A DNA stretch of 50,043 nucleotides, from assembly GCA_964632105.1 (NCBI GenBank), contig CAZWFH010000001.1:1-50043 (forward strand). Direction: 5' to 3'. Origin of the DNA: an uncultured Atribacterota bacterium. Its GTDB lineage: Bacteria; Atribacterota; Phoenicimicrobiia; Phoenicimicrobiales; Phoenicimicrobiaceae. Positions 5,559-49,950 of the stretch are shown here, piece by piece. The position numbers and the translations under genes were made by a program. The notes under the pieces are model-generated. The model had not been told where the DNA came from, ran no database searches, and saw only the letters and a program-made list of their open reading frames with translations. Within the stretch, counting starts at the first letter, position 1; each line of letters begins with the position of its first letter.

Positions 5559-5621
5559 CCTGAAACTTACAGCTCTGACCTACACATACTAAATACTAAC
5601 GACCAACAACTGACGACTATT
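5540..5621. repeat. Mosaic word-repeat patch (CAAG words plus ACTAACGACCAAC words)
   Basis: CACCTTGCACCTTGCAACCTG and AAATACTAACGACCAACAACTGACGACTATTTTG. The latter is nearly identical to 38545-38577. Confidence 0.75.
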
Positions 5622-6443: not shown

Positions 6444-6552
6444 TTTCCTCCTCTTATTATAACAAGATAACACTTTTTTATTAATTATATCATAAAATCA
6501 AATATTTTATTTTCCAAAGTAAAACCATTTTATTCATAGATATTTCATCGGT

Positions 6553-6685: not shown

Positions 6686-7264
6686 ATGCAAAAAGAAAAA
6701 TTAAATAGACAAACCAAATCATCCAAAGAAGGTTATATCATTATGCCAAATAATTTTTTAGCAGAATGGATAAGGGTAATGGGTAAAGGTCCGGTTTTAC
6801 TCTATATCCAACTGCTTACCTATTGTCATAAAGAAAAAGATATAGCCTGGCCTGCACTGTCCACTTTAGGCGATAGTCTAAATATGTCCAAAAATAGTCT
6901 GATCAGTTATCAAAAAACTCTCCTTGAGTATGGCCTGATTAAAAAGATCACAGGAAGAAGAACTGCTCAGGGAAATTATCGGTCTAACCTCTATAAGGTT
7001 ACTCCTATAAGGAGTCCAAAAAATGGACCCGGCCAGGTCCAAAAAATGGACACGGGAAGTCCAAAAATTGCACTTGACCAGGTCCAAAATTTGCACCCTA
7101 ACAGTACTAATCTTAACATTACCAAATCAACAACAACAAATGGAGAAAATGTTGTTGTTAATTTTAAAAAATTAAAAGAGAAAGGAGAAGAAAAGATACT
7201 GGCAATTAGAGAACAGTTGATTAACTTAGATATTGAAGAAAGCTTAATTGAGAAATTGCTTTAA
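6686..7264 (+). CDS. Replication initiator-like winged-helix protein (phage O / DnaD-like organiser), ended by an in-frame TAA
   Basis: RBS GAAGGAGA. IMPNNFLAEWIRVMGKGPVLLYIQLLTYC...WPALSTLGDSLNMSKNSLISYQKTLLEYGLIKK fits the HTH_36-type Rep N-terminus. The ORF contains four internal iterons. Confidence 0.6.
   Translation: MQKEKLNRQTKSSKEGYIIMPNNFLAEWIRVMGKGPVLLYIQLLTYCHKEKDIAWPALSTLGDSLNMSKNSLISYQKTLLEYGLIKKITGRRTAQGNYRSNLYKVTPIRSPKNGPGQVQKMDTGSPKIALDQVQNLHPNSTNLNITKSTTTNGENVVVNFKKLKEKGEEKILAIREQLINLDIEESLIEKLL
7014..7096 (+). repeat. Four dyad-symmetric 15-bp iterons at 22-23 bp spacing inside the Rep-like ORF (candidate origin)
   Basis: GTCCAAAAAATGGAC at 7014 and 7037, GTCCAAAAATTGCAC at 7059, GTCCAAAATTTGCAC at 7082. 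An AT-rich stretch follows. Confidence 0.6.
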
Positions 7265-7591
7265 AACTATCCTGCTGAAAAGATCGAAGAGAAAATAGAC
7301 CTGCTTCTTATCAAGAGGAATATCCAAAGTCCCGCCGGCTGGCTGATGGCAGCACTTAAGAATGATTATCAGGATTTGGAACAGGAAGGATTTGATGAAG
7401 AACCTGTAGGAGGAAGCGAGGATCTCAAATGTAGGGGCACGATGCATCGTGCCCTCAACGAATCGGGACAGATAAATCCGTCCCCTACAGAAACAAAGAT
7501 AAACTCTGGAGATAATAAAAAAATCCTCTCCAGTGAAGAAGTAATAAGACGGTTTAAACTTCTAAGACAAGAATTAATGGCAATGAATTAA
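7265..7591 (+). pseudogene. In-frame continuation of the Rep-like gene (C-terminal domain), cut off by a TAA stop
   Basis: Same frame as 6686-7264. NYPAEKIEEKIDLLLIKRNIQSPAGWLMAALKNDYQ is a typical Rep/DnaD-like C-terminal motif. It also carries an in-frame palindromic insertion at 7430-7457. Confidence 0.45.
7430..7457. repeat. TGTAG-family palindromic hairpin (copy inside coding sequence)
   Basis: TGTAGGGGCACGATGCATCGTGCCCTCA. The core GGGCACGATGCATCGTGCCC is a perfect 20-nt palindrome. Confidence 0.8.
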
Positions 7592-7603
7592 TGCACAAGA
7601 ATT

Positions 7604-7660
7604 TGTAGAGACACGGCGTGCCGTGTCTTCTTCTTCACCACGGCACGCCGTGGTGCTACA
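7604..7660. repeat. Compound double-hairpin repeat (type B), copy 1
   Basis: TGTAG-AGACACGGCGTGCCGTGTCT-TCTTCTT-CACCACGGCACGCCGTGGTG-CTACA. A near-identical copy lies at 9311-9367. Confidence 0.85.
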
Positions 7661-7707
7661 TTTCGTATCTTGTAACTAAAAACTATTTTGATAAAGGAGA
7701 AAAATAC

Positions 7708-8022
7708 ATGTCCGAATTAAAAGAATTAATCGCTAAAGCCAAACAAAGAAACGTAAAAGCAATGGAGGAACTGTTCAACCAATTTAAACCTCTGTTGAAA
7801 TCAAGAGCCAGGAAGTATTCTCTATACGGTTTAGAATATGAGGATGTTTTTCAGCAGGCCGCCCTGCTCTTTATCCTGGCTGTTTACCATTATAAAGAAA
7901 AACCTCCTACTACCTTTGCCGGTTATATGAAAAAGAGAATCGACTGGGGATTGTGGGTCTATTATCGGGAATATCTTAAACAACAGATAGAAATATCCAG
8001 TGGCCTAAAAATAGGTGATTGA
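7708..8022 (+). CDS. Sigma-70 family region-2-only protein (RsoA-like half sigma)
   Basis: ATG 7708 follows AAAGGAG. ELFNQFKPLLKSRARKY...YEDVFQQAALLFILAVYHYKEKPPTTFAGYMKKRIDWGLWVYYRE fits sigma region 2.1-2.4. There is no region 4. The track ORF start at 7618 lies inside a hairpin repeat. Confidence 0.7.
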   Translation: MSELKELIAKAKQRNVKAMEELFNQFKPLLKSRARKYSLYGLEYEDVFQQAALLFILAVYHYKEKPPTTFAGYMKKRIDWGLWVYYREYLKQQIEISSGLKIGD

Positions 8023-8027
8023 GACTT

Positions 8028-8055
8028 GTAGGGGCGTATTGCCATACGCCCCTAC
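8028..8055. repeat. TGTAG-family palindromic hairpin in the sigma r2/r4 junction
   Basis: GTAGGGGCGTAT-TGCC-ATACGCCCCTAC: 12-bp arms and a 4-nt loop. Confidence 0.85.
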
Positions 8056-8075
8056 CAAATATCAGAAGGAGGATA

Positions 8076-8282
8076 ATGCTTTTGAGTAGATTAGAAAATA
8101 TCTTACTAAACAATAATTTAGAAGAAAATTATAATCTTTTGACTAAAAGAGAAAGAAAAATTATCAATTTGTATTATCTTGAGGGATATAAGGATAAAGA
8201 GATAGCAAAGATTTATGGTGTTTGCCAGCAATCGGTAAACGAAAGTCGTAAAAAAGGAATAAAAAAATTAAAATATTTTTAA
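8076..8282 (+). CDS. Sigma-70 family region-4-only protein (SigO-like half sigma)
   Basis: ATG 8076 follows AGGAGG (8067-8072). LTKRERKIINLYYLEGYKDKEIAKIYGVCQQSVNESRKKGIKKLK is a region 4.2 HTH. Confidence 0.7.
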   Translation: MLLSRLENILLNNNLEENYNLLTKRERKIINLYYLEGYKDKEIAKIYGVCQQSVNESRKKGIKKLKYF

Positions 8283-8437
8283 TTTTTTTTAAAACTACCC
8301 TGTAAAATCACCTCTTTTTTGCTCTTACTAAGTAGAGGAAGTTTTTAGCTATGCTAAAAACTGTGATGAGTAATAAGTAATGAGTGATAAGCCTAATTAT
8401 TTAAGTAATTGTATACTCATTACCTGTCACATATTAC

Positions 8438-8461
8438 GCAATTAACCTACAGGTTAATTGC
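8438..8461. promoter_or_regulatory. Perfect 11-bp inverted repeat just upstream of the RBS of the 8486 gene
   Basis: GCAATTAACCT-AC-AGGTTAATTGC, followed by TAAGAAGGAGGTG. Confidence 0.4.
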
Positions 8462-8485
8462 TAAGAAGGAGGTGAAAAAAATAAG

Positions 8486-8758
8486 ATGGCCAGCGAATTA
8501 GGAGAAGTAACCAGTTATAAGAGACTGTATATGCAGTTTAGAGATAGTGCAGCTAAAACCATAAATCTAACCTTGAATAATCCCAAGAACGTAGATGATG
8601 GAGACTATGCTGACTTTGCGGCACAAGATGTCGCTGTTGAAGGAGTGATGGATACTATCATCGCCAAGAACATCTTCCATAATGATGGTAATGACTTAGT
8701 AGCCAAAGTAAATGCAAGAATCCTTGATTATAAGTCTACTGATGTTATGGATGTGTAG
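8486..8758 (+). CDS. DUF2922/DUF1659-like small protein
   Basis: 90 aa with RBS GAAGGAGG and no signal peptide. The pattern YKRLYMQFRD...KTINLTLNNPK...MDTIIAKNIF...LVAKVNARIL resembles the small DUF1659/DUF2922 proteins that accompany YvrJ in Firmicutes. Confidence 0.4.
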   Translation: MASELGEVTSYKRLYMQFRDSAAKTINLTLNNPKNVDDGDYADFAAQDVAVEGVMDTIIAKNIFHNDGNDLVAKVNARILDYKSTDVMDV

Positions 8759-8760
8759 GA

Positions 8761-8790
8761 AATAATGGTTAACCATTATTTCCAGTTTTT
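8761..8790 (+). terminator. Putative intrinsic terminator
   Basis: The palindrome AATAATGGTTAACCATTATT is followed by TCCAGTTTTTT. Confidence 0.4.
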
Positions 8791-8809
8791 TGTTTATAGT
8801 TTTTAGTTT

Positions 8810-8837
8810 GTAGGGGCGTATAGCGATACGCCCCTAC
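8810..8837. repeat. TGTAG-family palindromic hairpin
   Basis: GTAGGGGCGTAT-AGCG-ATACGCCCCTAC. It differs from the 8028 copy only in the loop. Confidence 0.85.
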
Positions 8838-8910
8838 CACTTGCAACATGCAACCTGTATTTCTAATTGGTCAATCGGTAAATTAACAAACGAGTGAAAG
8901 GAGGAAATCC

Positions 8911-9291
8911 ATGTTAGAAGCAATATTAAGTAAGTATCTACTCAATGCCCTACTATTATCTCTCGTCTCTATCTTTTACAGTTTTCTAAAGAACAAATTA
9001 GGAGAAGACAGAGCAAGTACCATTAAAGAGGCTATTCTTGCTGCCATGCTCTGGGCTGAAGAAGAGCTGGGGATAGGAAATAGTAATCAGAAATGGGATA
9101 TAGCCTGGAAGAATTTAATAGAGATACTGGCTGATAAGAATATCAGTTTAAGAAAGAGCGAGGAGAAAACAGTAAATATGATGATGAAGGCCAATGTGGA
9201 CAGGATCAATCGGCAGACCTATGATGTCCTGTTGAAGAAGAAATTAATAAAAGATAAAGGCCCTATCCAGCAGTCACTGTTGATTAAATAA
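8911..9291 (+). CDS. Holin-like protein (LL-H-type pattern)
   Basis: 126 aa with RBS AAAGGAGG. An N-terminal TM helix is followed by AILAAMLWAEEELGIGNSNQKWDIAWKNLIEILADKNISL, which resembles LL-H family phage holins. It sits directly upstream of a peptidoglycan peptidase gene. Confidence 0.45.
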   Translation: MLEAILSKYLLNALLLSLVSIFYSFLKNKLGEDRASTIKEAILAAMLWAEEELGIGNSNQKWDIAWKNLIEILADKNISLRKSEEKTVNMMMKANVDRINRQTYDVLLKKKLIKDKGPIQQSLLIK

Positions 9292-9310
9292 CCTCTCGTG
9301 AGGAGGATTT

Positions 9311-9367
9311 TGTAGAGACACGGCGTGCCGTGTTTTCTTTTTCACCACGGCACGCTGTGGTGCTACA
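9311..9367. repeat. Compound double-hairpin repeat (type B), copy 2
   Basis: TGTAGAGACACGGCGTGCCGTGTTTTCTTTTTCACCACGGCACGCTGTGGTGCTACA. Confidence 0.85.
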
Positions 9368-9461
9368 CTCACTCCTTGCAACTCATATCTTGTATTTTAA
9401 TTGGTCAATCGGTAAATTAGTGAATTGGTCAATTAACTAACGACTGAAAGGAGTTTGTTCC

Positions 9462-9842
9462 ATGCAAATGTTAAATAGTATAAACAATATAAACATCGCT
9501 CCACACTTCAACTTATCTGAATTTGCCTGTCCCTACTGTAAGAGAATAATGTTACGTCCCCTTCTCTTAGAAAAATTAGAAAAACTAAGAAAGATAATTG
9601 AAAAACCGATTCACATCACTTCCGGATATCGCTGCTCGAGATATAACCATCAAATTGGAGGGGTAACAAACAGCTACCACTGTATCGGACTGGCAGCAGA
9701 TATTAAAGTAAAAGATATCAATCTGATTACCCTTTTGGAGATATGTGAGAATATAGATTTTACTGGAATCGGGTTTTATGAGAAGAAGAACTTCCTGCAT
9801 CTGGATGTGCGGCCTACCGAACGCACCCGCTGGAGGGAATAA
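9462..9842 (+). CDS. Peptidase M15A (Peptidase_M15_3) zinc cell-wall peptidase, endolysin-like, no signal peptide
   Basis: HFNLSEFAC...ITSGYRCSRYNHQIGGVTNSYHCIGLAADI...FLHLDVR supplies the H/D/H zinc ligands of the LAS/M15 fold. Confidence 0.8.
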   Translation: MQMLNSINNINIAPHFNLSEFACPYCKRIMLRPLLLEKLEKLRKIIEKPIHITSGYRCSRYNHQIGGVTNSYHCIGLAADIKVKDINLITLLEICENIDFTGIGFYEKKNFLHLDVRPTERTRWRE

Positions 9843-9843
9843 A

Positions 9844-9884
9844 AAGTTGCCCAAAGGTGCCTGGCACCTTTGGGCAACTTTTTG
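9844..9884 (+). terminator. Strong stem-loop with T-run
   Basis: AAGTTGCCCAAAGGTGCC-T-GGCACCTTTGGGCAACTT followed by TTT. It ends 17 nt before the next start codon. Confidence 0.7.
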
Positions 9885-9900
9885 AGAAAGGAGTGAAGTA

Positions 9901-10170
9901 ATGGATGTTAAAACATTGTCTGAAGTGATCGCTAATCAGGGCTTCCCTATCGCCTTATCGATACTCTTAATCTTTCGCATCGATAGATTTATGCAGGAGA
10001 TAGTAACTGCCCAGAAAGATGGTTATCGTCAAATATTAGAAAATACTAAAGAGATACATAATACAATCACTAGCTTAAACCAGCAAAATCGAGAATACTA
10101 TTCGTTGCGCTTTTCGGAAGTGCAGAAAGAACTCTCCGGAATGAAGATAGAGTTGGGAAAAATTGAATAG
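9901..10170 (+). CDS. YvrJ-like small membrane protein
   Basis: VIANQGFPIALSILLIFRIDRFMQEI matches the YvrJ-family core (N-GFPI-hydrophobic-LL-R-I/E). RBS AAAGGAG. Confidence 0.45.
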   Translation: MDVKTLSEVIANQGFPIALSILLIFRIDRFMQEIVTAQKDGYRQILENTKEIHNTITSLNQQNREYYSLRFSEVQKELSGMKIELGKIE

Positions 10171-14207: not shown

Positions 14208-14714
14208 TTATCCTTTCAACCCCGCTGTTTTTACCCCTTCGATGAAATATTTTTGTGCTAATACAAAGACTATTACTATTGGTAAAATGGACATCGCTGA
14301 GGCTGCCATCATTAATGGCCATTGGGTTAGTCCTTCTCGGAAACCCTTAAAACCAGCAATACCAAGAGCAAGGACTTTCATATTATCCGTGTTTATTACA
14401 ATAAGCGGGTAAGTAAAATCATTCCAGGCAGAACCAAAGGTAAATATAGCCATCGCTGCCAGTGCTGGCTTTACCAATGGTAACATTATACTCCAAAATA
14501 TTCTAAAAGGACTTGCTCCATCTATAATAGCTGCCTCTTCTAATTCCTTAGGTATGGTAAGGAAAAACTGTTTCAATAAAATACACTGAAAGCCCCACCG
14601 AATGCTCCCAGTGCATGAGGAATAATCAGAACCTGATAGGTGTTAATCCAATGTAAATTTTTTTTACTCAAGATGAAAATTAGCAAATTTAAATAGATTC
14701 AGAATTCGTTTCAT
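14208..14714 (-). pseudogene. Carbohydrate ABC permease remnant (internal deletion plus frameshift)
   Basis: The C-terminal half is intact (EAAIIDGASPFRIFWSIMLP...). An upstream frame reads LHWINTYQVLIIPHALGAFGGAFSVFY*. A 16-aa N-terminal stub MKRILNLFKFANFHLE* follows an AGGAGG at 14714. The middle TM segments are missing. Confidence 0.7.
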
Positions 14715-17932: not shown

Positions 17933-18946
17933 CTAAGTAGAATTTCTGATAATTAATTTTGGCTGAAAAATAATTCTTTGGTGTGTATAGTTCTCAGGAT
18001 TTTTCAAATGTTGATTCAAAATTTTTATTGCCCCTTCTGCCATCTTTTTTACAGACTGGCTAATTGTTGTCAAGGCTGGATAATAGTACTCTGATAATGG
18101 AATATTATCAATTCCAAGAATTGCAATATCCCGGGGTATTTTTAGTCCTTTTTCCTGAATAGCATGATAAACTCCTATTGCCCTCTGATCACCGGAGACA
18201 AAAAGGGCATCAGGAACTTCTTCTTCTAAAATATTCTTCATTTTTTCATAAGCAAATTTGGGGTTCATAATTCCATAATCAATATGCCTTAATTCACTCT
18301 TGATATGATAATCATTAAAAGCTTGAATAAATCCTTTTGCTCTATCCTGGTTTACCGTAAAATTTTCATCCCCCAAAAAAAATCGAATAGACTTATTCCC
18401 TCTTTTGATAAGATGCTCAGCTCCCAAATAACCTGCTTTAACATTATCAAGGTTAACAAAAGAAGTAGATTCATAGACATTATCCCTACCGACAATAACA
18501 AAAGGAATATCCCTTTCCACAAGATAGTCAATCCGGCGATCAATTTCCCGAGTATCAAAAATTATAGCACCGTCTGCAAAGCCATTTTTAAGCAAATAAA
18601 AACCATCATGTTTATTTTCTTCAACTTTGGAAGCTGAAGACTTTGAAACTATTAATTTATACCCTAATCTATTGGCTTCACTATCTAAAAACCGGATAAA
18701 AACATTATGGAAATTTCCTATATAATTTGCCGCATTTTTTTCTACAAAGACCATCAAAATCCCGGTTGTTTTTTTTCTAAGTGATCTGGCAATAAGATTA
18801 ACCTGGTACCCGGTTGATTTAATGATTTTTAATATTTTATCTCTTGTTTCTTTCTTTACTTTTTTTTCTTCATTTACAACTCTGGAAACCGTCCGTGGGG
18901 AAACGTTGGCGATTTTTGCGATGTCTTTAACAGTATATTCCTTTAT
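17933..18946 (-). CDS. LacI/GalR family regulator whose HTH lies upstream of the track ORF; no canonical start codon
   Basis: The minus frame upstream of 18757 reads KEYTVKDIAKIANVSPRTVSRVVNEEKKVKKETRDKILKIIKSTGYQVNLIARSLRKK, in frame with the track ORF. RBS GGGGGTGA lies 7 nt before an ATA codon at 18946-18944. No ATG, GTG or TTG occurs between the upstream stop and the HTH. Confidence 0.75.
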   Translation of the reverse strand: MKEYTVKDIAKIANVSPRTVSRVVNEEKKVKKETRDKILKIIKSTGYQVNLIARSLRKKTTGILMVFVEKNAANYIGNFHNVFIRFLDSEANRLGYKLIVSKSSASKVEENKHDGFYLLKNGFADGAIIFDTREIDRRIDYLVERDIPFVIVGRDNVYESTSFVNLDNVKAGYLGAEHLIKRGNKSIRFFLGDENFTVNQDRAKGFIQAFNDYHIKSELRHIDYGIMNPKFAYEKMKNILEEEVPDALFVSGDQRAIGVYHAIQEKGLKIPRDIAILGIDNIPLSEYYYPALTTISQSVKKMAEGAIKILNQHLKNPENYTHQRIIFQPKLIIRNST

Positions 18947-18969
18947 TTCAAATCACCCCCATAAAATCA

Positions 18970-26212: not shown

Positions 26213-26240
26213 CAGTTACCACCTCCCTTTTAATAAAATT

Positions 26241-27230
26241 TGTATCGAGTATCGAGTTAAGAAAGAGAAAGAAAAGAAAAGAAATTAAAAAAACAGTATT
26301 GTAGCAGATGTATCGTTAAGAAAGAAAAACAATAATACTGTATTAAGTATATAATATCGAGTTAAGAAGATAAAATTCGTATCTCGTATATAGTATCGAG
26401 TATCGAGTATCGTGTATCGAGTCAAGAAAGAAAAAGAAAAGAAATAAAAAACAGTATTGCACTAAATATATTGTATTAAGTATATAATATCGAGTTAAGA
26501 AGATAAAATTCGTATCTCGTATCTCGTGAATCGTATCTCGCAAAGATAATAAAAACTAAGAATCAGAATAAATTTCTATTGCATATATAGTATATAGTAT
26601 CGAGTAACGTGTATCGTGTATCGTGTAAAGAAAGAGAAAGAAAAGAGATTAAAAAACAATATAGTACCAAATGTATCGTCAAGAAAGAGAAAGAAAAAAA
26701 CCATTCTACTTTTTATCTACCTCAATAAAGTTTATATCAGAAAATTGTCTTTTACAATTATCTTATTCGATAGAATAGGCAAAAATCCTTCTTTAATTAT
26801 ATATGATGATTTAAAAATTACAACATTAGACAAAAAAAGTATTATATAGTATCGAGTTAAGAAAGAGAAAGAAAAAAAATTAAAAGACAGTATCGTGCCA
26901 AATATATCGTTGAGGAAGAGAAAGAAAAATACTATTCTGCTTTTTATCTAAAAACTATAAACTAAAAACTAAAAACTTGTATTTATACTAACGACTAATT
27001 TAACCGGCAAACTGGTTAACCAGGTAACTGGATAACTAATATCCTATACGCTAAACGCTGATTAAATACTATCGACTATTTTAATTGGCAAATTTTTGTA
27101 TCTTGCATATTGTGGTTTTAATTGGTGAATTGGTAAATTGGTCAATTAATTTATTTTCTTTCCCTTTCTTAACTCGATACTATATACTCAATACTCGATA
27201 CTGTTTTTTAAATCGGTAAATTAATTACAA
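26241..27230. repeat. ~1 kb mosaic word-repeat array (four ~100-nt U units, two ~50-nt V units, then a chain of 7-8-nt tandem words)
   Basis: U copies start near 26241, 26391, 26587 and 26844 ((GTATCGA)n-AAGAAAGAGAAAGAAAAG-AAAAAACAGTAT...). V copies lie at 26339-26390 and 26471-26522. Words at 26945-27215: CTAAAAA, ACTAACGAC, CCAGTT/AACTGG, TACGCTAAACGC, AATTGGTN. An inverted U-type end lies at 27150-27208. Confidence 0.85.
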
Positions 27231-27488
27231 ATATTTTAATAAAAAAAGAGGAATTTGCTTTAAAAAATAGAATATATATAATATAAAATAGAAAAGTCTT
27301 TAATTCTTAAACTAAAAAATTAAAATAATTCGGTTCAAAAATGATATAATAAAAATAAGTTAAAAAAATTTTAATAAAAAAAGAGGAATTTTAAAAGTAA
27401 TGTTGAATATATAATTATTAAGTGTAAATTCTTTTAGTCGATTTTTTCGATTTTATCCGTAAAATTATAAAATAATAAAAAAGAAAGG

Positions 27489-28601: not shown

Positions 28602-28860
28602 AGAATAAAATAGTATCGAGTATATAGTATACCGTATGATAGAGTAGAGCGGATAGGATATTAGTTATGCAGTTACCCGGTTAACCAGTTTGCCAGTTAA
28701 TAAGTTTCGAGTTACAAGTTTCTGGTTTCAAGTTTACAGAGAGAGGTAGGGGCTTGATTTATCAAGCCCGCAAAACTCGAGACAGATAACCCGTATACTA
28801 TAAACTGTTTTTTTACTAACGACTATTCACTAACGACTATTAAAATAAATTCGAGGTGAA
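28602..28860. repeat. Mosaic word-repeat patch with a TGTAG-type hairpin
   Basis: GTATCGAGTATATAGTAT; CCGGTTAACCAGTTTGCCAGTT; GTTACAAGTTTCTGGTTTCAAGTTTACAG; hairpin GTAGGGGCTTGATTTATCAAGCCC (28747-28771); ACTAACGACTATTCACTAACGACTATT. Confidence 0.8.
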
Positions 28861-28863
28861 AAA

Positions 28864-30964: not shown

Positions 30965-31137
30965 TAAATTAATTTACCAATTTACCGATTAGTCGATAGT
31001 ATTTAATTAGCGTATAGCGTACAGCGGGTAGCGTATAGGCACGGGGAACAATTGCGGGAAAAAATACGAATACTAAAGACGCAAAAATTTCCCACAGTCT
31101 GCCCGTAGGACAGGCGTCTCGCCTGTCTAAAGTAAAT
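30965..31137. repeat. Mosaic word-repeat patch plus hairpins downstream of clpB
   Basis: TTACCAATTTACCGATT; GTCGATAGTATTT; AGCGTATAGCGTACAGCGGGTAGCGTATAGG; hairpin GACAGGCG-TCTC-GCCTGTC. Confidence 0.75.
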
Positions 31138-36334: not shown

Positions 36335-36485
36335 TTTTATCCCTCTTTTTTATTTTGTATTTTACCATATTTTACTTTTAATTTTAAGAGTTTTTCTTTT
36401 TCTCTATATATTATATTCTACAACAAATGTAAAATCCCTGCATAAATTTTATTTTTTTTCAAAATTTTTTCAGTTATAAATTAAT

Positions 36486-36990
36486 TCACCAATTCTCCAA
36501 TTTGCCAATTTGCCAATTTAAAAAACAGTATCGAGTATTGAGTATATAGTATCGAGTTAAAAAAGGGGAAGAAAATAAATTAATTGACCAATTTGACAAT
36601 TCTCCAATTAATAAAATTTGTAAGATATAATATGCGAGATTCAATAAAAAGATGCAAGATACAAAGATTACAATTAACCGATTAAGCAATATAGTAATTT
36701 GCCAATTTGCCGCTTAGCCAATTAAATTAGTCGTTAGCAATAAACCTAGCGTATAGTGTATATTGTTTAGCGTATAGTAATTTAGAATCGTATATTGTGT
36801 ATTAGTTACCCAGTTACCTTGTTCACCAGTTTCCAGTTTCTTTAAGATAAAATCTTCTCTAACTTCTATCTCTATTTGCCAGATTCTCAAATCTTGAAAG
36901 TTTTTTATCTTCTCAGTCATTCTTCTCTTTCTTTTTCCTTCTTTGCTCGATACTCGATACTATATACTCGATACTATCTTTATATCAATT
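36486..36990. repeat. Mosaic word-repeat region holding two long dispersed-repeat copies
   Basis: 36521-36612 is ~90% identical to the reverse complement of 27116-27208. 36745-36872 is ~87% identical to the reverse complement of 43281-43408, with a ~50-nt perfect core. Track ORFs 36486-36689 and 36714-36920 and the first ~55 codons of 36943-38109 are repeat artefacts. Confidence 0.85.
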
Positions 36991-37107
36991 GATTACCCTT
37001 TAAAGAAATGTTATAATTTTTTAAGTTATAAAGATAATATTTTTTATTATATTACAATTAATTTTATAAAAATAAAATACTTCGGCCTTGGGAGGAATAT
37101 ACTACAT

Positions 37108-38109
37108 TTGCTCAATTTATGGCTCTTATTTTTAATATGTGCCCTGATAATTATTTTTACGGGAACTAAACTGACCCGCTACGGAGATATAATTGCTGAA
37201 AAAACCGGATTGGGAAGGGTCTGGATTGGAGCTGCATTAATCCCATTAGCTACCTCTCTTCCTGAACTTACTTCCAGTTCCGGTGCCGCCTGGATCAATG
37301 CCCCTAATTTAGCTATTGGAAATATCTTCGGCAGTATTATGTTCAACTTATTAATTATCGCTATAGCAGATTTTGCTCATGGTCCCGGTCCACTCCTTAG
37401 AGAAGTATCTTCCGGCCAAATTCTAACTGCTATTTTAGGAATATTTCTATGTGCAATTGCTGCCTTGAGTATGTTGATAAAACCACCATTTCTCCTTGCA
37501 GGGGTCGGCATAGATTCTCTAATTTTAATAATTCTGTACTTTTTAGGTATTTTAGTAATATTCAAATATAGTAAAAGAAATAAACCCGATGATGTCCTGG
37601 GAGTCCCTGAGGAAAATTATGCTACCTATTCTTTACCCTTAACCAATATCAAATTTTTAATAGCAGCTATAATTATAATCTTTGCCGCCATGAAGTTAGC
37701 ACAAGTAGCCAATAGTTTAGCAGACCTTACCGGATGGGGAACAACTTTTATGGGCACTATAATGTTAGCCATCATTACTTCTTTACCAGAATTAGTTACC
37801 GCCCTTGCGGCTATTAGAATAAAGGCTTATGACCTTGCGGTAGGCATTGTCCTGGGAGCAAATATTCTTAATATGACTATACCATTCTTCTCAGATATAT
37901 TTTATGATGGCCCACCAATTTTAAGTGTAGTCTCACCCCAGCATATTATTAGTGCTCTAATAGCTATAATTCTCACCAGTATTGCTATTACCAGTGTGGT
38001 ATACAGACCTAAAAAATCATTATTTAATTTAGGGGTAGCTGGCTGGTTAATTTTTATAGTATATTTCCTGGGAATTTTCTTAATCTTTAAAATAGGAATA
38101 AAAATATAA
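37108..38109 (+). CDS. Ca2+/cation antiporter (CaCA, YrbG-like) membrane protein
   Basis: Two alpha-repeat Na_Ca_ex motifs (ATSLPELTSS, ITSLPELVTA) and about 10 TM helices. The probable TTG start at 37108 lies downstream of GGAGG (37091-37095), but the start is uncertain. Confidence 0.75.
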   Translation: MLNLWLLFLICALIIIFTGTKLTRYGDIIAEKTGLGRVWIGAALIPLATSLPELTSSSGAAWINAPNLAIGNIFGSIMFNLLIIAIADFAHGPGPLLREVSSGQILTAILGIFLCAIAALSMLIKPPFLLAGVGIDSLILIILYFLGILVIFKYSKRNKPDDVLGVPEENYATYSLPLTNIKFLIAAIIIIFAAMKLAQVANSLADLTGWGTTFMGTIMLAIITSLPELVTALAAIRIKAYDLAVGIVLGANILNMTIPFFSDIFYDGPPILSVVSPQHIISALIAIILTSIAITSVVYRPKKSLFNLGVAGWLIFIVYFLGIFLIFKIGIKI

Positions 38110-38183
38110 AGAATTTTTGACTTTTTCTAATATATATGTTATCTTATTAAAAATTTAATATTTGTACCTCACTTTTTTCTTAA

Positions 38184-38368
38184 GTGAGGTGGAGGCGCGA
38201 GCAATAATCAGTACTGGTGATGAGATGAGCATCTTTGATTCGCCAGGAAAGGCATTCTCGCCGAAGCGTTAAAGATAACAGCTCTAATCTTTATGCTGGG
38301 TTTATGGTTAAAAGCCATAAGACTGTCATCAGAATCTATACCCTGGTTTCTGATGGAGCGCTATCTCA
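38184..38368 (+). promoter_or_regulatory. Lysine riboswitch (L-box) aptamer
   Basis: Conserved blocks in order: GGAGGCGCGAGC, GGAAAGGC, TCGCCGAAGCG, CTGGG, GACTGTCA, TGGAGCGCTATC. P1 pairs TGAGGT (38184-38189) with ATCTCA (38363-38368). It lies upstream of lysA. Confidence 0.85.
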
Positions 38369-38413
38369 TCTGATGAGAGAAATGGGAGTAAATTTAATTG
38401 TTAGATTAATTTC

Positions 38414-38456
38414 AGGCAATTGATGAGCATAGCGTTTGTCAATTGCCTTTTTTTTA
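38414..38456 (+). terminator. Riboswitch expression-platform intrinsic terminator
   Basis: AGGCAATTGA...TCAATTGCCT followed by TTTTTTT. Confidence 0.75.
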
Positions 38457-38580
38457 TTTATGAATTTGAATTGCCTGTCTATACAAATGTAGGGATTTGA
38501 TTTATCAAACCCTCTTATACCTTATGCCATTGCAGCTTAAAACTAAATACTAACGACCAACGACTAACAACTATTTTAAG
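38457..38580. repeat. Mosaic repeat patch between the riboswitch terminator and the lysA RBS
   Basis: Hairpin TGTAGGGATTTGATTTATCAAACCCT (38488-38514) and AAATACTAACGACCAACGACTAACAACTATTTT (compare 5591-5624). Confidence 0.8.
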
Positions 38581-38589
38581 GAGGAATTA

Positions 38590-39927
38590 ATGAATAATCA
38601 AAACAATATAACACCTCGAATTAATCGAGAAGGTCTTTCCCTAAATAAATCTGGAAATTTAGAATTCGACCGATGTGAGCTTGTAAAATTAGCCCAAAAA
38701 TATGGAACCCCCTGTTATATTTTTTCGGAAAGTATAATTAGAAAAAAATGTCGGCAATATACTTCTGCTTTTTCTAAAAGAAACATTGATTTTGAAATAA
38801 TTTATGCTGGTAAAGCCTTTTTGGTTAAAGCAATGTGTAATGTCTTAAAGGAAGAGGATTTAAGTCTGGATGTTTCTTCTGGCGGAGAATTATATACTGC
38901 CCTTTCAGTAGGATTCCCACCGGAAAAAATATTTTTCCATGGGAATAACAAATCCAAAAAAGAAATAGAATTCTCTCTTAAAGAAAAAATTGGCACCATG
39001 ATGGTAGATAGTGAGTATGAACTCAACGTAATTAGCCAGGTTGCAGAAAGTTTAAATACGAAGGTGGAAATAATTCTCCGGGTAACTCCGGGAATAGATA
39101 CTCATACTCATAAATATATTCAAACCGGACAGGTAGATTCAAAATTTGGAATCAGTATTGATAGTATCCCTGATTTCATAAAAAAAGTTCTTTCTATGAA
39201 AAATATTTCATATAAGGGTCTGCATTTTCATCTCGGTTCACAAATTTTTGATCTATTTCCTTATGTCCTAGCTATCAAGGAAATGGCAAAACTTATTAAG
39301 CAAATAAAAGATCTTTGGGGAATAGATACCCCTAATCTAAATTTGGGTGGAGGTTTAGGGGTGAAATACCTTGAATCTGATCAACCTCCTTCCGTAGAAT
39401 ATTTTGTAAATTTAATTGTTGATAATCTTGCAAAAGAAATAAAAGAAAATAATTTAGTAATGCCTAAGATATTGATAGAACCAGGAAGGTCTATAGTGGC
39501 GGAAGCAGGCATTACTCTCTATACTATCGGTAACATAAAAGAAATACCGGGAATTAGAAAATACCTTATTGTAGATGGAGGTATGGCTGATAATCCTCGA
39601 CCAATCCTTTATCAAGCAAAATATGAAGCTGTTTTAGTAAATAAAGTAAATGATAATCTTCCTAAGGAATTGGTAACTATTGCCGGGAAATGTTGTGAAT
39701 CAGGAGATATTTTAATAAAAAATTTGAAACTTCCTTCAGCTTCACCGGGGGATCTTTTAGCAGTATTTACCACTGGGGCTTATCATTATTCTATGTCCAG
39801 CAATTATAACCGACTTCCCCGGCCAGCGGTCGTCCTGGTAAATCAAGGAAAAGATGGTTTAATGGTAAAAAAAGAAACTTATAGTGATATTGTAAGAAAC
39901 GATACCATACCAGAGTGGTTTAAATAA
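38590..39927 (+). CDS. lysA: Diaminopimelate decarboxylase
   Basis: 445 aa. YAGKAF (PLP lysine), HFHLGSQ, EPGRSIVA, CESGD and AYHYSMSSNYN are typical LysA blocks. Confidence 0.9.
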   Translation: MNNQNNITPRINREGLSLNKSGNLEFDRCELVKLAQKYGTPCYIFSESIIRKKCRQYTSAFSKRNIDFEIIYAGKAFLVKAMCNVLKEEDLSLDVSSGGELYTALSVGFPPEKIFFHGNNKSKKEIEFSLKEKIGTMMVDSEYELNVISQVAESLNTKVEIILRVTPGIDTHTHKYIQTGQVDSKFGISIDSIPDFIKKVLSMKNISYKGLHFHLGSQIFDLFPYVLAIKEMAKLIKQIKDLWGIDTPNLNLGGGLGVKYLESDQPPSVEYFVNLIVDNLAKEIKENNLVMPKILIEPGRSIVAEAGITLYTIGNIKEIPGIRKYLIVDGGMADNPRPILYQAKYEAVLVNKVNDNLPKELVTIAGKCCESGDILIKNLKLPSASPGDLLAVFTTGAYHYSMSSNYNRLPRPAVVLVNQGKDGLMVKKETYSDIVRNDTIPEWFK

Positions 39928-39951
39928 AAAAATATACATAAGGTGATATTT

Positions 39952-41187
39952 ATGAGAATAATCGTAAAATTTGGCGGAACCAGCGTTCAGGATCCTGAAA
40001 GGATTAAAAAAGCCGCCCAATCAATAATTCAACAAGCAAAAAAAGGATATGAAATAGTAGCTGTTGTTTCAGCAATGGGTAATACCACTGACACTTTAAC
40101 TTCTTTACTTAAAGATTCTGTTAAAGACCGTATAGAGGATAGAGATTATGCTGATTTTGTTTCTATGGGAGAGCGGATAAGTACCAGGGTTCTTGCGGCA
40201 ACCATTAAATCTATGGGATTTTCTTCGAGATATTTTGACCCGGCAGATAAGGATTTTCCTATTATTACTGATGTAAATTTTAGTCAAGCTAAAATACTGT
40301 TTGAGGAGAGCAAAAAAAAGTGTCAAAAAATAATCGAACCATTGCTAAAAAAGGGTGTTATTCCTATAGTATGCGGTTTTTTAGGTAGAAGTTATGAAGA
40401 TGGAAGCATAACAACTCTTGGCCGGGGCGGTAGCGATATCACTGCTTTTGCCCTGGGAAACTTTTTAGAAGCCGATGAAGTAATAATCGTAACTGATGCA
40501 GTAGGAGTTTTAAGTGCTGATCCCCGAATAATAAAAGAACCCGTAACTTTAAAAAAAATAAGTGTGGAAGAGATGGGAGTCCTTGCTGAAGGTGGAGCAA
40601 AAGTTTTACATCCACAGGCCTTAAAATATAAAACTGATAGAATGAAAGCAAAAATTATTCATTTTCAAAACGGAAATTTATCCGCAGAAGGAACAGAGAT
40701 AATAGGGGCTTTTAAAAGTAAATTAACTCTTTTCAAAGAAAAACTAACTATGTTAACTATTCTGGGAACGGAAATTTTTAATACCCCAGGACTCTTAAAA
40801 AAGACGATTACCCCTATTTCCGATAATCATATTAGTCTATATGGAGTTTCCATCGGGACAAAACATATCGGAATCTATGTTATGGAGAATTATGCCCAGC
40901 AATCTTATGATTTGATTCATCCTACTGTAATTGAAGATGAAAGGCTAAAGTCAGTTACTTTAAAAAATAATATTGCTTTAATCATTGCCAGAAGCAGGGA
41001 TTTTATAGAAACACCTGGTATTATCGAGAGGATTACCCGGCCCTTAGCTGAAAATAATATAAATATAATTGAAATGACTACTATCAAAACAGATATTTTA
41101 ATCTTTTTGGAATGGAAAGATAGAGAATTTGCCTACCAAATAATAAATAAATCATTGAAAGAGGCAGGAATCAAGGTAAATAATTGA
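39952..41187 (+). CDS. lysC: Aspartate kinase
   Basis: ATG 39952 follows AAGGTGA. KFGGTSV, VVSAMGNTTD, and tandem C-terminal ACT-like domains. Confidence 0.9.
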   Translation: MRIIVKFGGTSVQDPERIKKAAQSIIQQAKKGYEIVAVVSAMGNTTDTLTSLLKDSVKDRIEDRDYADFVSMGERISTRVLAATIKSMGFSSRYFDPADKDFPIITDVNFSQAKILFEESKKKCQKIIEPLLKKGVIPIVCGFLGRSYEDGSITTLGRGGSDITAFALGNFLEADEVIIVTDAVGVLSADPRIIKEPVTLKKISVEEMGVLAEGGAKVLHPQALKYKTDRMKAKIIHFQNGNLSAEGTEIIGAFKSKLTLFKEKLTMLTILGTEIFNTPGLLKKTITPISDNHISLYGVSIGTKHIGIYVMENYAQQSYDLIHPTVIEDERLKSVTLKNNIALIIARSRDFIETPGIIERITRPLAENNINIIEMTTIKTDILIFLEWKDREFAYQIINKSLKEAGIKVNN

Positions 41188-41470
41188 ATTTGGCACAAGC
41201 CAAATTCGTATCGCGTATCGAGTATCGAGTATTGCGTAAAGAGAAAAAGGAGTTACAAGATACAAGGTGCAAGTTGCAAGTAGGGGCGTATTGCATACGC
41301 CTTAATAGCGTATAGCGTATAGTTAAGAAAGAAGGAGTCAGAATATAGAAACCAAATTAATATGTGGTGTATATAGTAAATAAAAAAGAAATCAGGAGGC
41401 AAAATTCAGGAATCAAAATAAATTCGTACGCGATACGCAATGCGATATACGATATACGAAAATAAAAAAG
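41188..41470. repeat. Mosaic word-repeat patch inside the lysine operon
   Basis: CGTATCGCGTATCGAGTATCGAGTATTGCG; CAAGATACAAGGTGCAAGTTGCAAG; degenerate hairpin GTAGGGGCGTATTGCATACGCC; AGCGTATAGCGTATAG; TACGCGATACGCAATGCGATATACGATATACG. Confidence 0.8.
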
Positions 41471-41482
41471 GAGGAAACAAAA

Positions 41483-42367
41483 ATGTTTAAAGGATCCTTA
41501 GTAGCTATGATTACCCCATTTACCAAAAATGATGAGGTCGATGAAAAAGGAATAAAAGAATTGGTGGAGTTTCATATCAAAAATGGAACCAATGGTATTG
41601 TCCCCTGTGGTACTACCGGGGAATCCCCTACTCTTTCTCATGAAGAACATAAAAGAGTTGCGGAGTTAACCATAAAAGCAGTAGCGGGAAGAGTCCCGGT
41701 AATTGCCGGAACCGGCTCCAATTGCACTCGAGAGGCCTTAGATCTAACTTCTCATGCTAAAGAAGCAGGGGCAGTCGGTGCTCTCATAATCACCCCTTAT
41801 TACAATAAACCAACTCAGAAAGGATTGTATCTGCATTTTAAAAAGATAGCAGAAGAAGTAGATATACCAATTGTAGTCTATAATGTCCCCTCCCGAACCG
41901 GAGTAAATATGTTACCTGAAACATTAGCGGAATTAGCTGAATTAAAAAATATTGTGGCGGTAAAAGAAGCCAGCGGGAATTTAGATCAGATGACTCAAAT
42001 AGTTGAATTGTGCGGAGATAAAATAACTCTTTTATCTGGAGATGATAAGTTGTTACTTCCATTATTATCTATTGGAGGGAAAGGGGTAATCTCGGTTGTT
42101 GCCAATATTATCCCCCGGGATGTATCTGATGTAGTCAGGGAATTTGAAGAAGGAAATTACCAAAAGGCTAAAGATATTTTCCTATCTAAAGTCTATCCCT
42201 TAAGTAATGCTATGTTTTACGAAACCAATCCCATCCCGGTTAAAACCAGTACCCGGTTAATGGGGTTGCCTTCCGGTAATCTACGATTACCTTTGAGTCC
42301 AATGAGTGAAAATAATCTGGCAAAATTAAAGGCGGACTTAATAAAATTTGGTTTACTGGAGGAATAA
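41483..42367 (+). CDS. dapA: 4-hydroxy-tetrahydrodipicolinate synthase
   Basis: GTTGES, YYNKPTQ, and VAVKEASG (active-site lysine). 294 aa. Confidence 0.95.
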   Translation: MFKGSLVAMITPFTKNDEVDEKGIKELVEFHIKNGTNGIVPCGTTGESPTLSHEEHKRVAELTIKAVAGRVPVIAGTGSNCTREALDLTSHAKEAGAVGALIITPYYNKPTQKGLYLHFKKIAEEVDIPIVVYNVPSRTGVNMLPETLAELAELKNIVAVKEASGNLDQMTQIVELCGDKITLLSGDDKLLLPLLSIGGKGVISVVANIIPRDVSDVVREFEEGNYQKAKDIFLSKVYPLSNAMFYETNPIPVKTSTRLMGLPSGNLRLPLSPMSENNLAKLKADLIKFGLLEE

Positions 42368-42370
42368 TAA

Positions 42371-43171
42371 ATGATTAATGTCATTATCTGTGGCGGCTGT
42401 GGAAAAATGGGTTCCGCAGTAGCTCGGTTAATTCATCAGAATGAAGATATGAAATTAGTAGGCATAATTGAATCCCCTTCTCATCCAGATAAAGGAAAAG
42501 ATTGGGGAATAGTAGCGGGCTTGGGAGAAACTGGAATAATTATCAAAGATAATTTGGAAGAGATAATTCAAAATACCGACCAGGTAGTTGAATTTACTAA
42601 TCCCCAAGTTTCTCTAAAACATCTGGAAATTATCTCAAAATATAAAAAAGCTATGATTATGGGAACTACCGGGTTCTCCTCAGAAGAAATCGAAAAAATC
42701 AATAAATTAGCTCAAGGCATTCCTTTTCTTCTTTCACCAAATATGTCTTTGGGAGTAAATTTACTATTTAAACTTGCAGCTGAAACTGCTGCTGCTTTGG
42801 GCGATGATTACGATATAGAAATTGTGGAGGCACATCATCGGTTTAAAAAAGATGCCCCTAGTGGTACAGCAAAAAAGTTGGCTCAAGAAATTGCAAAAGC
42901 TAAAGGGGTGAACCTGGATGAGGTAGCAATTTATGGCAGAGAAGGAATAACCGGAGAAAGAAAAAGAGGAGAGATTGGTATCCACTCAATTAGGAGCGGA
43001 GATATTACCGGTGAACATACAGTGATGTTCACTGCCTTAGGCGAGAGATTAGAATTAACTCATAAAGCCCACAGTCGGGATACTTTTGCCTATGGGACCA
43101 TCCAGGCAATAAAATTTATGAAAGGCAAACCCGCAGGTTTTTATGAAATGAAAGATGTGCTGAACATATAA
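42371..43171 (+). CDS. dapB: 4-hydroxy-tetrahydrodipicolinate reductase
   Basis: N-terminal GGCGKMG nucleotide-binding loop, EAHHRFKKDAPSGTA, HSIRSGDITGEHTV. Confidence 0.95.
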   Translation: MINVIICGGCGKMGSAVARLIHQNEDMKLVGIIESPSHPDKGKDWGIVAGLGETGIIIKDNLEEIIQNTDQVVEFTNPQVSLKHLEIISKYKKAMIMGTTGFSSEEIEKINKLAQGIPFLLSPNMSLGVNLLFKLAAETAAALGDDYDIEIVEAHHRFKKDAPSGTAKKLAQEIAKAKGVNLDEVAIYGREGITGERKRGEIGIHSIRSGDITGEHTVMFTALGERLELTHKAHSRDTFAYGTIQAIKFMKGKPAGFYEMKDVLNI

Positions 43172-43425
43172 AACAGAAGTCAGGAGCCAGAATAAAATCG
43201 TATCTCGTATCTCGTGAATCGTATCTCGTTGAGAAATAAGTATCGAGTATATAGTATAGAATATTTAGTTAAGGAAATAAGAGATAGAGGTTGGAGAAGA
43301 TATCATCTCAAAGCAACTGGTAAACTGGTGAACAAGGTAACTGGGTAACTAATACACAATATACGATTCTAGATTATTATACGTTAAACGCTGTATGCTA
43401 TACGCTAGTAAAGGAAAAAATCATT
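43172..43425. repeat. Mosaic word-repeat patch between dapB and dapF
   Basis: CGTATCTCGTATCTCGTGAATCGTATCTCG (43199-43228) is identical to 26511-26540. 43281-43408 is the long repeat shared with 36745-36872. Confidence 0.85.
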
Positions 43426-44286: not shown

Positions 44287-44350
44287 TTGACCAATTCACC
44301 AATTAATTTTAGTTAGCCAGTTTGCCGGTTAACCAGTTTACCAGTCGAAT
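44287..44350. repeat. Word-repeat patch (CCAATT/CCAGTT words) between dapF and dapL
   Basis: TTGACCAATTCACCAATTAATTTTAGTTAGCCAGTTTGCCGGTTAACCAGTTTACCAGTCG. Confidence 0.8.
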
Positions 44351-44413
44351 GCACATTAAAAAATATTAAAATAAAATAATGATAAAATTTATTAACAAAA
44401 GGAGAAATTGTAG

Positions 44414-49734: not shown

Positions 49735-49950
49735 AAAATGGGGAAACACGGTGGTTTCCTTCTTCCGCGGGAACGACAAAGGAAAGATACAAAAATAATA
49801 ATGAAAAGACGAAATAGTGTATCGCATACAATTTTATAATAATTTTTGGTTTATTGGTTGTAACTGGTTGTAGGGGCACAATGAATTGTGTCCTCGCCAT
49901 ATTACTGCCTGATTTTTTTCTGCGGGCACGATGCATCGTGCCCCTACATC
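49735..49950. repeat. Hairpin repeat cluster (TGTAG family and related)
   Basis: GGAAACACGGTGGTTTCC; TGTAGGGGCACAATGAATTGTGTCC (degenerate); GGGCACGATGCATCGTGCCCCTACA (49924-49948), which has the same core as 7430-7457. Confidence 0.75.

Follow-up and report, generated by a model that had tools for sequence, protein, structure and literature searches.

Pneumococcal BOX elements (boxA-boxB(n)-boxC) and MITEs (miniature inverted-repeat transposable elements) are modular non-autonomous repeats. Here we describe modular non-coding repeats in the genome of an uncultured Atribacterota bacterium, where a stretch of 50,043 nucleotides at the start of contig CAZWFH010000001.1 (referred to below as the window) carries mosaics of 7- and 8-nt word arrays, purine tracts, and GC-rich hairpins tagged by GTAG. 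Two kinds of described repeats come closest to these mosaics. They are treated as separate, their origin, spread, and function are debated, and here both are found in one system.

The first kind, long known from enterobacteria and represented in E. coli and Pseudomonas, is the repetitive extragenic palindrome (REP), a palindrome with GTAG in front, organised in bacterial interspersed mosaic elements (BIMEs) and mobilised by TnpA-REP, or RAYT (REP-associated tyrosine transposase) (PMC8266576, PMC3733652). The GTAG-tagged REP super-family was surveyed by Di Nocera in 2013, with Atribacterota not among the listed phyla (PMC3733652), and RAYT/TnpA-REP were treated by Corneloup in 2021 (PMC8266576). 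The second kind is the heptamer repeat, first reported in cyanobacteria (the Calothrix report, as cited in PMC4692102); over-representation of heptamers, together with a slippage hypothesis, is credited to Mrazek 2007 in PMC4692102 and PMC4679880. GGGNATC repeats of Xanthomonas and Nostoc lie on the sense strand just past stop codons and on the antisense strand just upstream of open reading frames (ORFs) (Rehm 2015, PMC4692102), TAACTGA repeats were described in Beggiatoaceae (MacGregor 2015, PMC4679880), and regulatory effects and binding partners have been proposed for the heptamer repeats of Beggiatoa and Nostoc (PMC4679880; bioRxiv 10.1101/2022.06.06.494920). Our literature search found no published description of repeats of this kind, of RAYTs, or of GTAG hairpins in Atribacterota, and the combination of word arrays with GTAG hairpins seems not to have been described previously.

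Like REPs, BIMEs, and REPINs (REP doublets forming hairpins), the elements of the window are strictly intergenic, build mosaics from a small set of conserved motif types that lie either way round, lie mostly downstream of genes and within operons, differ in presence between strains, and belong to long-conserved sequence families; they also include GC-rich palindromes of 20-30 nt preceded by GTAG, often as inverted doublets. They differ in that their bulk consists of 7- and 8-nt arrays of GT words and of purine tracts rather than palindromes, that the arrays stand in register with the GTAG head, and that no RAYT was seen in the window or in about 600 kb of DNA from relatives. An earlier note on this DNA had likened the elements to BIMEs with a different vocabulary. 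The likeness holds for the GTAG hairpins of the same mosaics (some in inverted doublets), for the arrays in register with them, and for the gain and loss of discrete blocks; the three long matches from which that note started (blocks a, b, and c below) are not strict BIMEs, since they lack the REP palindrome (20-50 nt, GC-rich, GTAG-preceded). Similarly, the REPIN unit of two inverted REPs, present or absent between strains, has its counterpart in a 76-nt doublet of a close relative (L121), but this likeness is one of the hairpin doublets and does not extend to blocks a-c.

With the heptamer repeats, known as long simple sequence repeats (LSSRs) or short tandemly repeated repetitive sequences (STRRs), the mosaics share the head-to-tail period of 7 nt, the intergenic location, the same rule of position and strand, and extensive variation among close relatives. 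The words are related as well, and the vocabulary is in this respect less different than had been supposed: GTATCGN, read as G(N)GTATC, is a low-GC form of the GGGNATC heptamers, and words of the GACCAAT(T) and TAACTG types recall cyanobacterial and Beggiatoa repeats (GACCAATT compared with GACCAAT/TTGGTCA, TAACTGG with TAACTGA). In contrast to the one to three word families of the described systems, at least ten are found in one genome here; the arrays, of only 2-5 words in a fixed irregular order, are copied whole, some have a period of 8 nt, and they are chained with one another and with hairpins into long composites. The G-quadruplex potential of GGGNATC, which calls for four or more G3 tracts, is absent from the window words GTATCGA/C/T, which have no G runs, whereas GTATCGG is found in other, GC-rich phyla. 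BOX elements and MITEs are likewise small, non-coding, intergenic, and modular, with variable internal units, and inverted arms occur in some of our mosaics (36521-36574 / 36928-36981); here, however, the arms themselves consist of word arrays, modules are of far more kinds, and neither target-site duplications nor constant termini are seen. Identification with MITEs was rejected on that ground, no target duplication having been found at any presence/absence junction. Integron attC sites, whose inverted cores R''(RYYYAAC)...R'(GTTRRRY) close mobile cassettes at the 3' end, were rejected too: in our spacers GTT-type words come to the left of AAC-type words, which is the reverse order, nothing fits GTTRRRY, and the setting is a housekeeping lysine operon. 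Heptamer binding sites of the SARP type were ruled out by sequence and spacing.

On balance, we favour the explanation that the long matches are copies of lineage-wide, non-coding, non-autonomous modular repeats, similar to REPs, BIMEs, and REPINs, that incorporate heptamer arrays of the STRR/GGGNATC type. Such repeats tie arrays that resemble simple sequence to mobile DNA based on hairpins in a concrete and testable way, with many natural filled and empty sites for work on mechanism. In addition, the mosaics break assemblies and mark recombination break-points in Atribacterota metagenomes.

Long Matches between Distant Spacers

The three matches reported earlier are real, with small corrections. 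Block a (43275-43408) and 36746-36877 in reverse complement are 88% identical in an alignment of 134 columns that has two 1-nt indels, the exact core being 49 nt (43323 on the plus strand and 36783 on the minus strand); the ungapped register had been one base off. Block b, 36507-36611 against the reverse complement of 27118-27222, is 93% identical over 105 nt and extends to 36507-36640 against 27096-27222 (127 columns, 88%), and its best ungapped register begins at 27117 rather than 27116. Block c has exact copies of its 30-mer at 26511 and 43199, as had been stated. The window has exact repeats of 51 (the longest), 41, and 30 nt, whereas ten first-order Markov simulations of it gave 16-19 nt, and within-window repeats cover 1403 of 9943 intergenic nucleotides (14%) versus 36 of 40100 genic ones (0.09%). 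The copies share no conserved ORF, in agreement with the earlier observation; the short ORFs over a and a' are in differing frames because of the indels.

Block a with its flank (43275-43413, plus strand) consists of a GAGATAGA linker, AACTGG octamer words (family E reversed), a second linker ACAATATACGATTCTA, and heptamer words TACGCTA (family B reversed). It stops 12 nt upstream of the dapF ATG in the dapB-dapF spacer (43172-43425) of the lysA-lysC-dapA-dapB-dapF operon. Its inverted copy a' (36746-36877, minus strand) occupies the centre of the spacer 36335-37099, whose flanking genes diverge and encode a BFN-type nuclease and a Na/Ca exchanger. The same spacer holds block b (36507-36640, plus strand): CCAATT words, AAAAAACA, GTATCGA/GTATTGA/GTATATA words, a purine tract, again CCAATT words, and CAAG-type words. 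The inverted copy b' (27096-27222, minus strand) is upstream of the TPR-protein gene, in the spacer 26213-27488 that has a PucR-type regulator gene on its other side. Block c with the array next to it (43189-43290, plus strand) begins directly 3' of the dapB stop codon with the end of the CAGNANT words, followed by GTATCTC GTATCTC GTGAATC GTATCTC, GTATCGA/GTATATA words, and a purine stretch; its second copy (26501-26540, plus strand) contains the exact 30 nt and is 93% identical over 40 nt.

The module order proposed for these loci (GTATCGA words, purine tract, GAGATAGA, CCAGTT words, ACAATATACGATTCTA, TACGCTA words) is complete at 43172-43425 on the plus strand and at 36990-36745 on the minus strand, and partial at 26213-27060, where GAGATAGA and ACAATATACGATTCTA are missing. 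That words are parts of larger mosaics with a conserved internal order is borne out, and this order is one case of the preferred array chains described below.

Dispersal in the Window and in Related Genomes

Word-repeat mosaics occupy 11 of the 33 spacers of the window, spread over 40 kb. A scan of 185,579 species genomes with three GTATCGN words as the query found at least 11 loci in about 8 metagenome-assembled genomes (MAGs) labelled Atribacterota, with the same word families and the same composites. This sharing by itself would most probably place the window in that phylum. A metagenome scan anchored on the DapB protein added about 50 syntenic contigs from close relatives, whose DapB is 72-95% identical to that of the window (loci and contigs from both scans are numbered L). 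The earlier note had asked for the same vocabulary in related genomes, and it is present there; identical composites stand at non-orthologous sites in either orientation. Since modules occur at many loci and in several species, the matches are a dispersed family and not duplications confined to a few loci.

Among the matches listed from other phyla are many GC-rich genomes with arrays of GTATCGG (= GGGTATC, of the GGGNATC class) beside other heptamer arrays. In Planctomycetota, Acidobacteriota, Nitrospirales, and others (loci including L004, L011, L022, L052, L064, L070, L075, L076, and L086), intergenic GTATCGG arrays adjoin arrays of GGCTACA, CAATACC, GGGGTTC, and CTGCTTT, often as inverted pairs around 100-150 nt. 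GTAGGG density within 200 nt of the GTATCGG arrays of these phyla was raised 2.6-fold, with a control that was partly similar, and was discarded as too weak. A viral origin was rejected as well, two module patterns giving 1 and 0 matches in IMG/VR.

Word Arrays: Period, Order, and Orientation

Arrays with periods of 7 nt (168) and 8 nt (66) predominate, those of 6, 9, 10, and 11 nt numbering 31, 1, 1, and 1. Outside genes lie 222 of the 234 period-7/8 arrays (158 of 168 for period 7 alone). In spacers alone, and not within genes, the autocorrelation of GT/GTA has peaks at lags of 7, 14, and 21. The 7-nt periodicity, with a ratio of 5.4 in the window, is absent from distant DapB relatives (49-59% identical; ratio 1.05). 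There are about ten word families, nearly all of them starting with GT: the heptamers GTATCGN/GTATCTC, GTATAGC (= TAGCGTA), GTAATNN, GTCAGGA-type, GTTGCAA-type, ACTAACG, and AAAACTN, and the octamers ATTNNCCA (CCAATT), GTTNNCCA (CCAGTT), and GTTAGCTG.

The arrays are short, with 2-5 words, and each type has its own fixed and often irregular word order, constant flanks, and favoured neighbours; they are therefore dispersed sequence elements rather than microsatellites made locally. One chain leads from TAGCGTA words through ATTA-GTTATCCA-GTTACCCG-GTTAACCA-GTTTGCCA and CAAG words to a GTAG hairpin; another leads from CAGNANT words through GTATCTC-GTATCTC-GTGAATC-GTATCTC to a purine tract. The irregular four-word unit of the latter recurs across loci and species, with its order kept in L027, L045, L114, L131, L133, and L139.

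Orientation follows a rule. In the left half of a spacer the forward reading of an array lies on the top strand, and in the right half it lies on the bottom one, with an odds ratio of 9 and p = 1e-5 over independent loci (the window and ten MAG loci); that is, arrays point from the gene border inward, toward the middle of the spacer. Those on the sense strand begin at a median of 0-40 nt past stop codons. Specific pairing between partners does not account for the rule, since mean complementarity (18.2 and 18.7 for gene flanks and spacer halves) scarcely exceeds that of mismatched pairs (17.7).

GTAG Hairpins

Sixteen GC-rich, REP-like hairpins preceded by GTAG were detected outside gene interiors in the window, and one more (38489-38515), absent from the output of the hairpin scan, was read by eye. 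Four pairs form inverted, REPIN-like doublets (7431-7488, 7605-7659, 9312-9366, and 49870-49947), none of them within blocks a, b, or c; single hairpins are at 8028-8055, 8810-8837, 28746-28770, 31105-31130, 38489-38515, and 41280-41305. The doublet regions 7599-7660 and 9306-9367 are 94% identical. Among 159 non-redundant GTAGGG heads of the lineage, GT is found at positions -7, -14, and -21 in 23-27 cases, compared with about 7.5 at other offsets; heptamer arrays therefore stand in register with the GTAG head, and chains of arrays often finish, in register, at a GTAG hairpin.

The gene for a sigma-70-type factor is broken exactly at the perfect GTAG palindrome 8028-8055 into one ORF with region 2 (7618-8022) and another with region 4 (8019-8282), and this split may be a REP-like insertion within a gene. 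The factor belongs to a cluster of small genes at 6686-10170 that looks phage-derived and encodes a helix-turn-helix (HTH) protein, DUF2922, a holin-like protein, an M15 peptidase, and a YvrJ-like protein as well. Its genes are spaced by hairpins and by CCAATT/CAAG word arrays, and its HTH ORF contains 22-23-nt direct repeats AGTCCAAAAAATGGAC at 7013-7096.

Turnover between Close Relatives

The dapB-dapF spacer is 0 nt long in six relatives, where stop and start codons overlap; elsewhere it measures between 120 and more than 420 nt and contains differing module sets. In the divergent spacer 36335-37099, both core promoters are kept in relatives and the centre is replaced wholesale: block a' is absent from this site in L121, L122, L126, and L133. 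In L121, whose genes are about 90% identical to those of the window, block b is retained at 94% at the orthologous site, and in place of block a' stands, in reverse complement and about 250 nt long, the dapB-dapF composite of L124 and L133.

Discrete blocks of 298, 119, 108, and 76 nt are present in some strains and absent from others between flanks that are 95-99.5% identical. The first (L157) is a mosaic with inverted GTATCG arms, and the second combines a CCAATT array with a hairpin. The 108-nt block, composed of a hairpin, GTATCGN words, a purine tract, CAAG words, and a GTAG hairpin, is in the window (41188-41305) and in L124 but not in L121, although L121 and L124 are 99.5% identical in the flank over 2.8 kb. 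The last is the inverted hairpin doublet GTAGGGGCAGACC...GGTCTGCCCCTAC, found in L121 and not in L155 (flanks 95% identical). Single words are gained and lost through slippage as well: (GTATCGA)2(GTATATA)2 alternates with 1+2 and 2+1 copies in L152/L153, L157, and L159.

Divergence from the window shifts across the dapB-dapF spacer in L141, L160, and L163; in L141, four-fold sites have an identity of 0.48 for dapB, against 0.74 for dapF and the gene that follows. Such a jump suggests that recombination has break-points in the repeat-filled spacer or close to it. Separately, L121, the closest relative, has a 1.56-kb insertion (4342-5907 of that contig) directly after the Na/Ca exchanger stop codon, with no word arrays at its junctions; of its two extra genes, one probably encodes a methylglyoxal synthase, to judge by eye from its translation, and the other encodes a membrane transporter; neither encodes a transposase.

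Conservation of Orthologous Copies

The 99-nt core of block a (43315-43413) is found at the same site in L124, L131, L141, L160, L163, and L170 at 84-93% identity (84-92% for the first five), and block c with its array matches in 97 of 98 positions in L138 and 90 of 98 in L164 (92-99%). Four-fold sites of the flanking dapB and dapF genes are 41-73% identical in comparison, with whole-gene nucleotide identities of 79-91%.

Origin and Spread of the Mosaics

In the explanation that we favour, the building blocks are modules of 30-100 nt (arrays of 7- or 8-nt words, purine tracts, and GTAG-tagged GC-rich hairpins), and they follow one another in favoured orders, such as TAGCGTA words, GTTNNCCA words, CAAGNTN words, and lastly a GTAG hairpin, to give mosaics of 100-600 nt. 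These occupy DNA that is probably dispensable, either from a stop codon to the next ribosome-binding site (RBS) or between divergent core promoters. An enzyme of the HUH/Y1 (RAYT-like) type encoded in trans may recognise the GTAG hairpins and copy blocks from site to site on single-stranded DNA; the word arrays would then travel as 5' extensions of the hairpins, and recombination at shared words would shuffle the modules. At each locus the elements would be dispensable passengers, and any effect on the mRNAs that traverse them, for instance in the lysine operon, would be secondary.

Several observations weigh against this explanation. Blocks a, b, and c contain no hairpin, and their movement by a hairpin-recognising enzyme is therefore an extrapolation; moreover, arrays in phase precede only about 12-15% of GTAG heads. 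No target-site duplication or sharp common terminus could be defined at the presence/absence junctions, and several strain differences are replacements rather than simple insertions, so recombination fits them as well as transposition does. Pfam scans of about 49 ORFs found no transposase, integrase, or reverse transcriptase in the window, and a motif scan found no HUH-Y1 ORF in about 600 kb of redundant DNA from relatives. The association with a transposase, including Y1/RAYT genes, that the earlier note had suggested looking for was thus not found, which is weak evidence since about 5% of a genome was sampled. Orthologous copies are 92% identical and the two paralogues of the window 88%; since the paralogues do not exceed the orthologues in identity, the likeness is not due to homogenisation within the genome, and together with conservation above four-fold sites this could reflect selection at the level of the host rather than selfish spread. 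Non-repeat spacers are also fairly conserved (0.71-0.87 in comparison with L133, a rough baseline from global alignment that is inflated by gaps), and for this reason the conservation of the modules is suggestive, and not proof, of sequence constraint.

One alternative dispenses with a dedicated enzyme: the arrays would arise as long simple sequence repeats by polymerase slippage, with the heptamer bias known from bacteria, spread by ectopic gene conversion or template switching at the micro-homology of shared words, and persist as neutral filler. It agrees with the single-word differences in copy number between close relatives, with the many strain differences that are replacements flanked by shared arrays, with the ends of block b, which fall within CCAATT arrays, and with the divergence change across the dapB-dapF spacer, as well as with the failure to find a transposase; heptamer over-representation and slippage are, in addition, already in the literature. 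Local slippage and drift, however, are not expected to produce short arrays of fixed irregular order across loci and species, nor to conserve modules, non-repetitive linkers included, far above four-fold sites. The hairpin doublet and the blocks of array plus hairpin behave as discrete units of presence or absence, and the orientation rule is not predicted. We regard this mechanism as rather unlikely.

According to another alternative, which we also consider improbable, the word arrays are not mobile and are selected tandem sites on DNA or in untranslated regions (UTRs) for a host protein, either a cold-shock-domain-like binder of about 7 nt of single strand or a nucleoid protein, with a regulatory or structural role. 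Conservation of primary sequence above neutral sites without RNA structure, the closer relation of orthologues than of paralogues, the strict 7/8-nt period with a common GT start, the orientation dependent on position (as for GGGNATC repeats), and the start of arrays 0-40 nt past stop codons are all in its favour, as are the regulatory effects and binding partners proposed for Beggiatoa and Nostoc. Yet a locus may carry no elements or another set in close relatives, up to the 0-nt dapB-dapF spacer, and the ten or more unrelated word families would require several binders or one very loose binder. Pfam scans of the window ORFs revealed no functional class shared by the genes that flank the repeats, and no binding protein was pinpointed. 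Neither this alternative nor slippage with recombination is exclusive of the modular mobile repeats that we favour.

A further and more speculative idea, to which we give rather little credence, is that the 7/8-nt arrays are made or read by a specific machine, either a GTAG-recognising HUH enzyme that 'stutters' or a protein for which they are ~7-nt single-strand binding sites. Stuttering by an HUH enzyme would explain both the heptamer register with GTAG heads and the shared GT start. If a machine of this type exists, Atribacterota would carry an intergenic 'code' under selection, and the same mechanism would explain the heptamer excess (STRR, GGGNATC, TAACTGA) across phyla, several of which have GTATCGG beside other heptamer arrays.

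It is very unlikely that the blocks are structured RNAs, i.e., small RNA genes, intercistronic processing stems, or pairs of 5' and 3' UTRs that bracket genes. Complementary arrays do bracket the TPR gene (27000-27059 / 28641-28700) and dapF (43316-43352 / 44309-44345), and spacers within the operon of the lysine riboswitch must be transcribed. The RNA of the dapB-dapF spacer, however, folds no better than shuffled sequences (z = +1.5 and +0.3 for the two strands), the consensus fold of unit a in a nine-copy alignment is -3.6 kcal/mol with no compensatory pair, and a search for Rfam families and tRNAs matched only the lysine riboswitch. Complementarity of gene flanks is near the mismatched level, and the co-occurrence of E arrays upstream (E<) and downstream (E>) of dapF across relatives is weak and phylogenetically confounded. 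Chance similarity of short words in AT-rich, low-complexity DNA (GC of about 32%), or a few local duplications, can be practically dismissed given exact repeats of 51, 41, and 30 nt where 16-19 nt are expected and the spread of modules through 11 spacers across 40 kb of the window, about 50 related contigs, and MAGs from several species.

Other Mosaics and Neighbouring Genes

The window has a GC content of about 32% and carries ordinary housekeeping genes. A lysine riboswitch (38182-38371, 110 bits), with a terminator-like hairpin nearby (38414-38448), heads the lysA-lysC-dapA-dapB-dapF-aminotransferase operon, which is presumably one transcript with its three repeat-filled spacers (41188-41482, 43172-43425, and 44287-44413) included. 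The first of these spacers begins with a plus-strand chain (41188-41305) of a small hairpin TTGGCACAAGCCAA, GTATCGN words, a purine tract, CAAGNTN words, and a GTAG hairpin, followed before the dapA RBS by TAGCGTA words and then reversed CGATAC/CGATATA words (41306-41482, plus strand). In the third, CCAATT words overlap the dapF stop codon and CCAGTT/CCGGTT octamers come next (44287-44350, plus strand), complementary to 43316-43352.

Around the TPR gene, a higher-order tandem at 26213-26990 (plus strand) is built of units of about 165-230 nt, each with a GTATCGN array and a AAGAAAGAGAAAGAAAA purine tract, and then AAAACTN words. The gene is bracketed by an inverted pair: a B-E chain at 27000-27059 (minus strand; TAGCGT words, ATTAGTTA, CCAGTT words) and its partner at 28641-28700, 88% identical over 60 nt. 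After its stop codon, 28602-28863 (plus strand) forms a full chain of GTATCGA words, degenerate B words, E octamers, GTTNCAA words, the GTAG hairpin 28746-28770, and ACTAACG words before an RBS. Upstream of the same gene, and outside the word vocabulary, 27218-27256 and 27353-27391 form a 39-nt direct repeat (90%) with an RBS-like AAAGAGGAAT inside. The spacer between clpB and an MscS gene (30965-31137, plus strand) contains CCAATT words, TAGCGTA words, and the GTAG hairpin 31105-31130.

Some genes of the window appear to be interrupted. The corA gene is in two ORFs (C-terminal part 4625-5095, N-terminal part 5142-5558) and is probably a pseudogene; an ORF on the opposite strand that overlaps it (5430-5951) has winged-helix Trans_reg_C as its sole domain, and a HicA/HicB pair follows at 5978-6473. 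An ABC permease fragment (14208-14576) and a LacI-family regulator whose called ORF has no N-terminal HTH (17933-18969) are possible frameshifts or pseudogenes; both belong to a sugar-utilisation cluster, the spacers of which have no word repeats.

The core of the mosaic in the divergent spacer (36521-36981) has inverted arms of GTATCGA words and a purine tract (36521-36574 / 36928-36981, 54 nt, 76%), and its DNA fold has a z of -2.9. Counts of promoters and terminators matched those of shuffled sequences, the sole standout being a conserved promoter at 36989-37017 (TTGATT-17-TATAAT with TG), outside the mosaic. The mechanical ORF call for the Na/Ca exchanger opens at a TTG at 36943, inside the repeat arm, whereas this promoter and the position of the RBS place the true start near 37100. 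As this false TTG exemplifies, repeats of this kind can misdirect gene-start calls.

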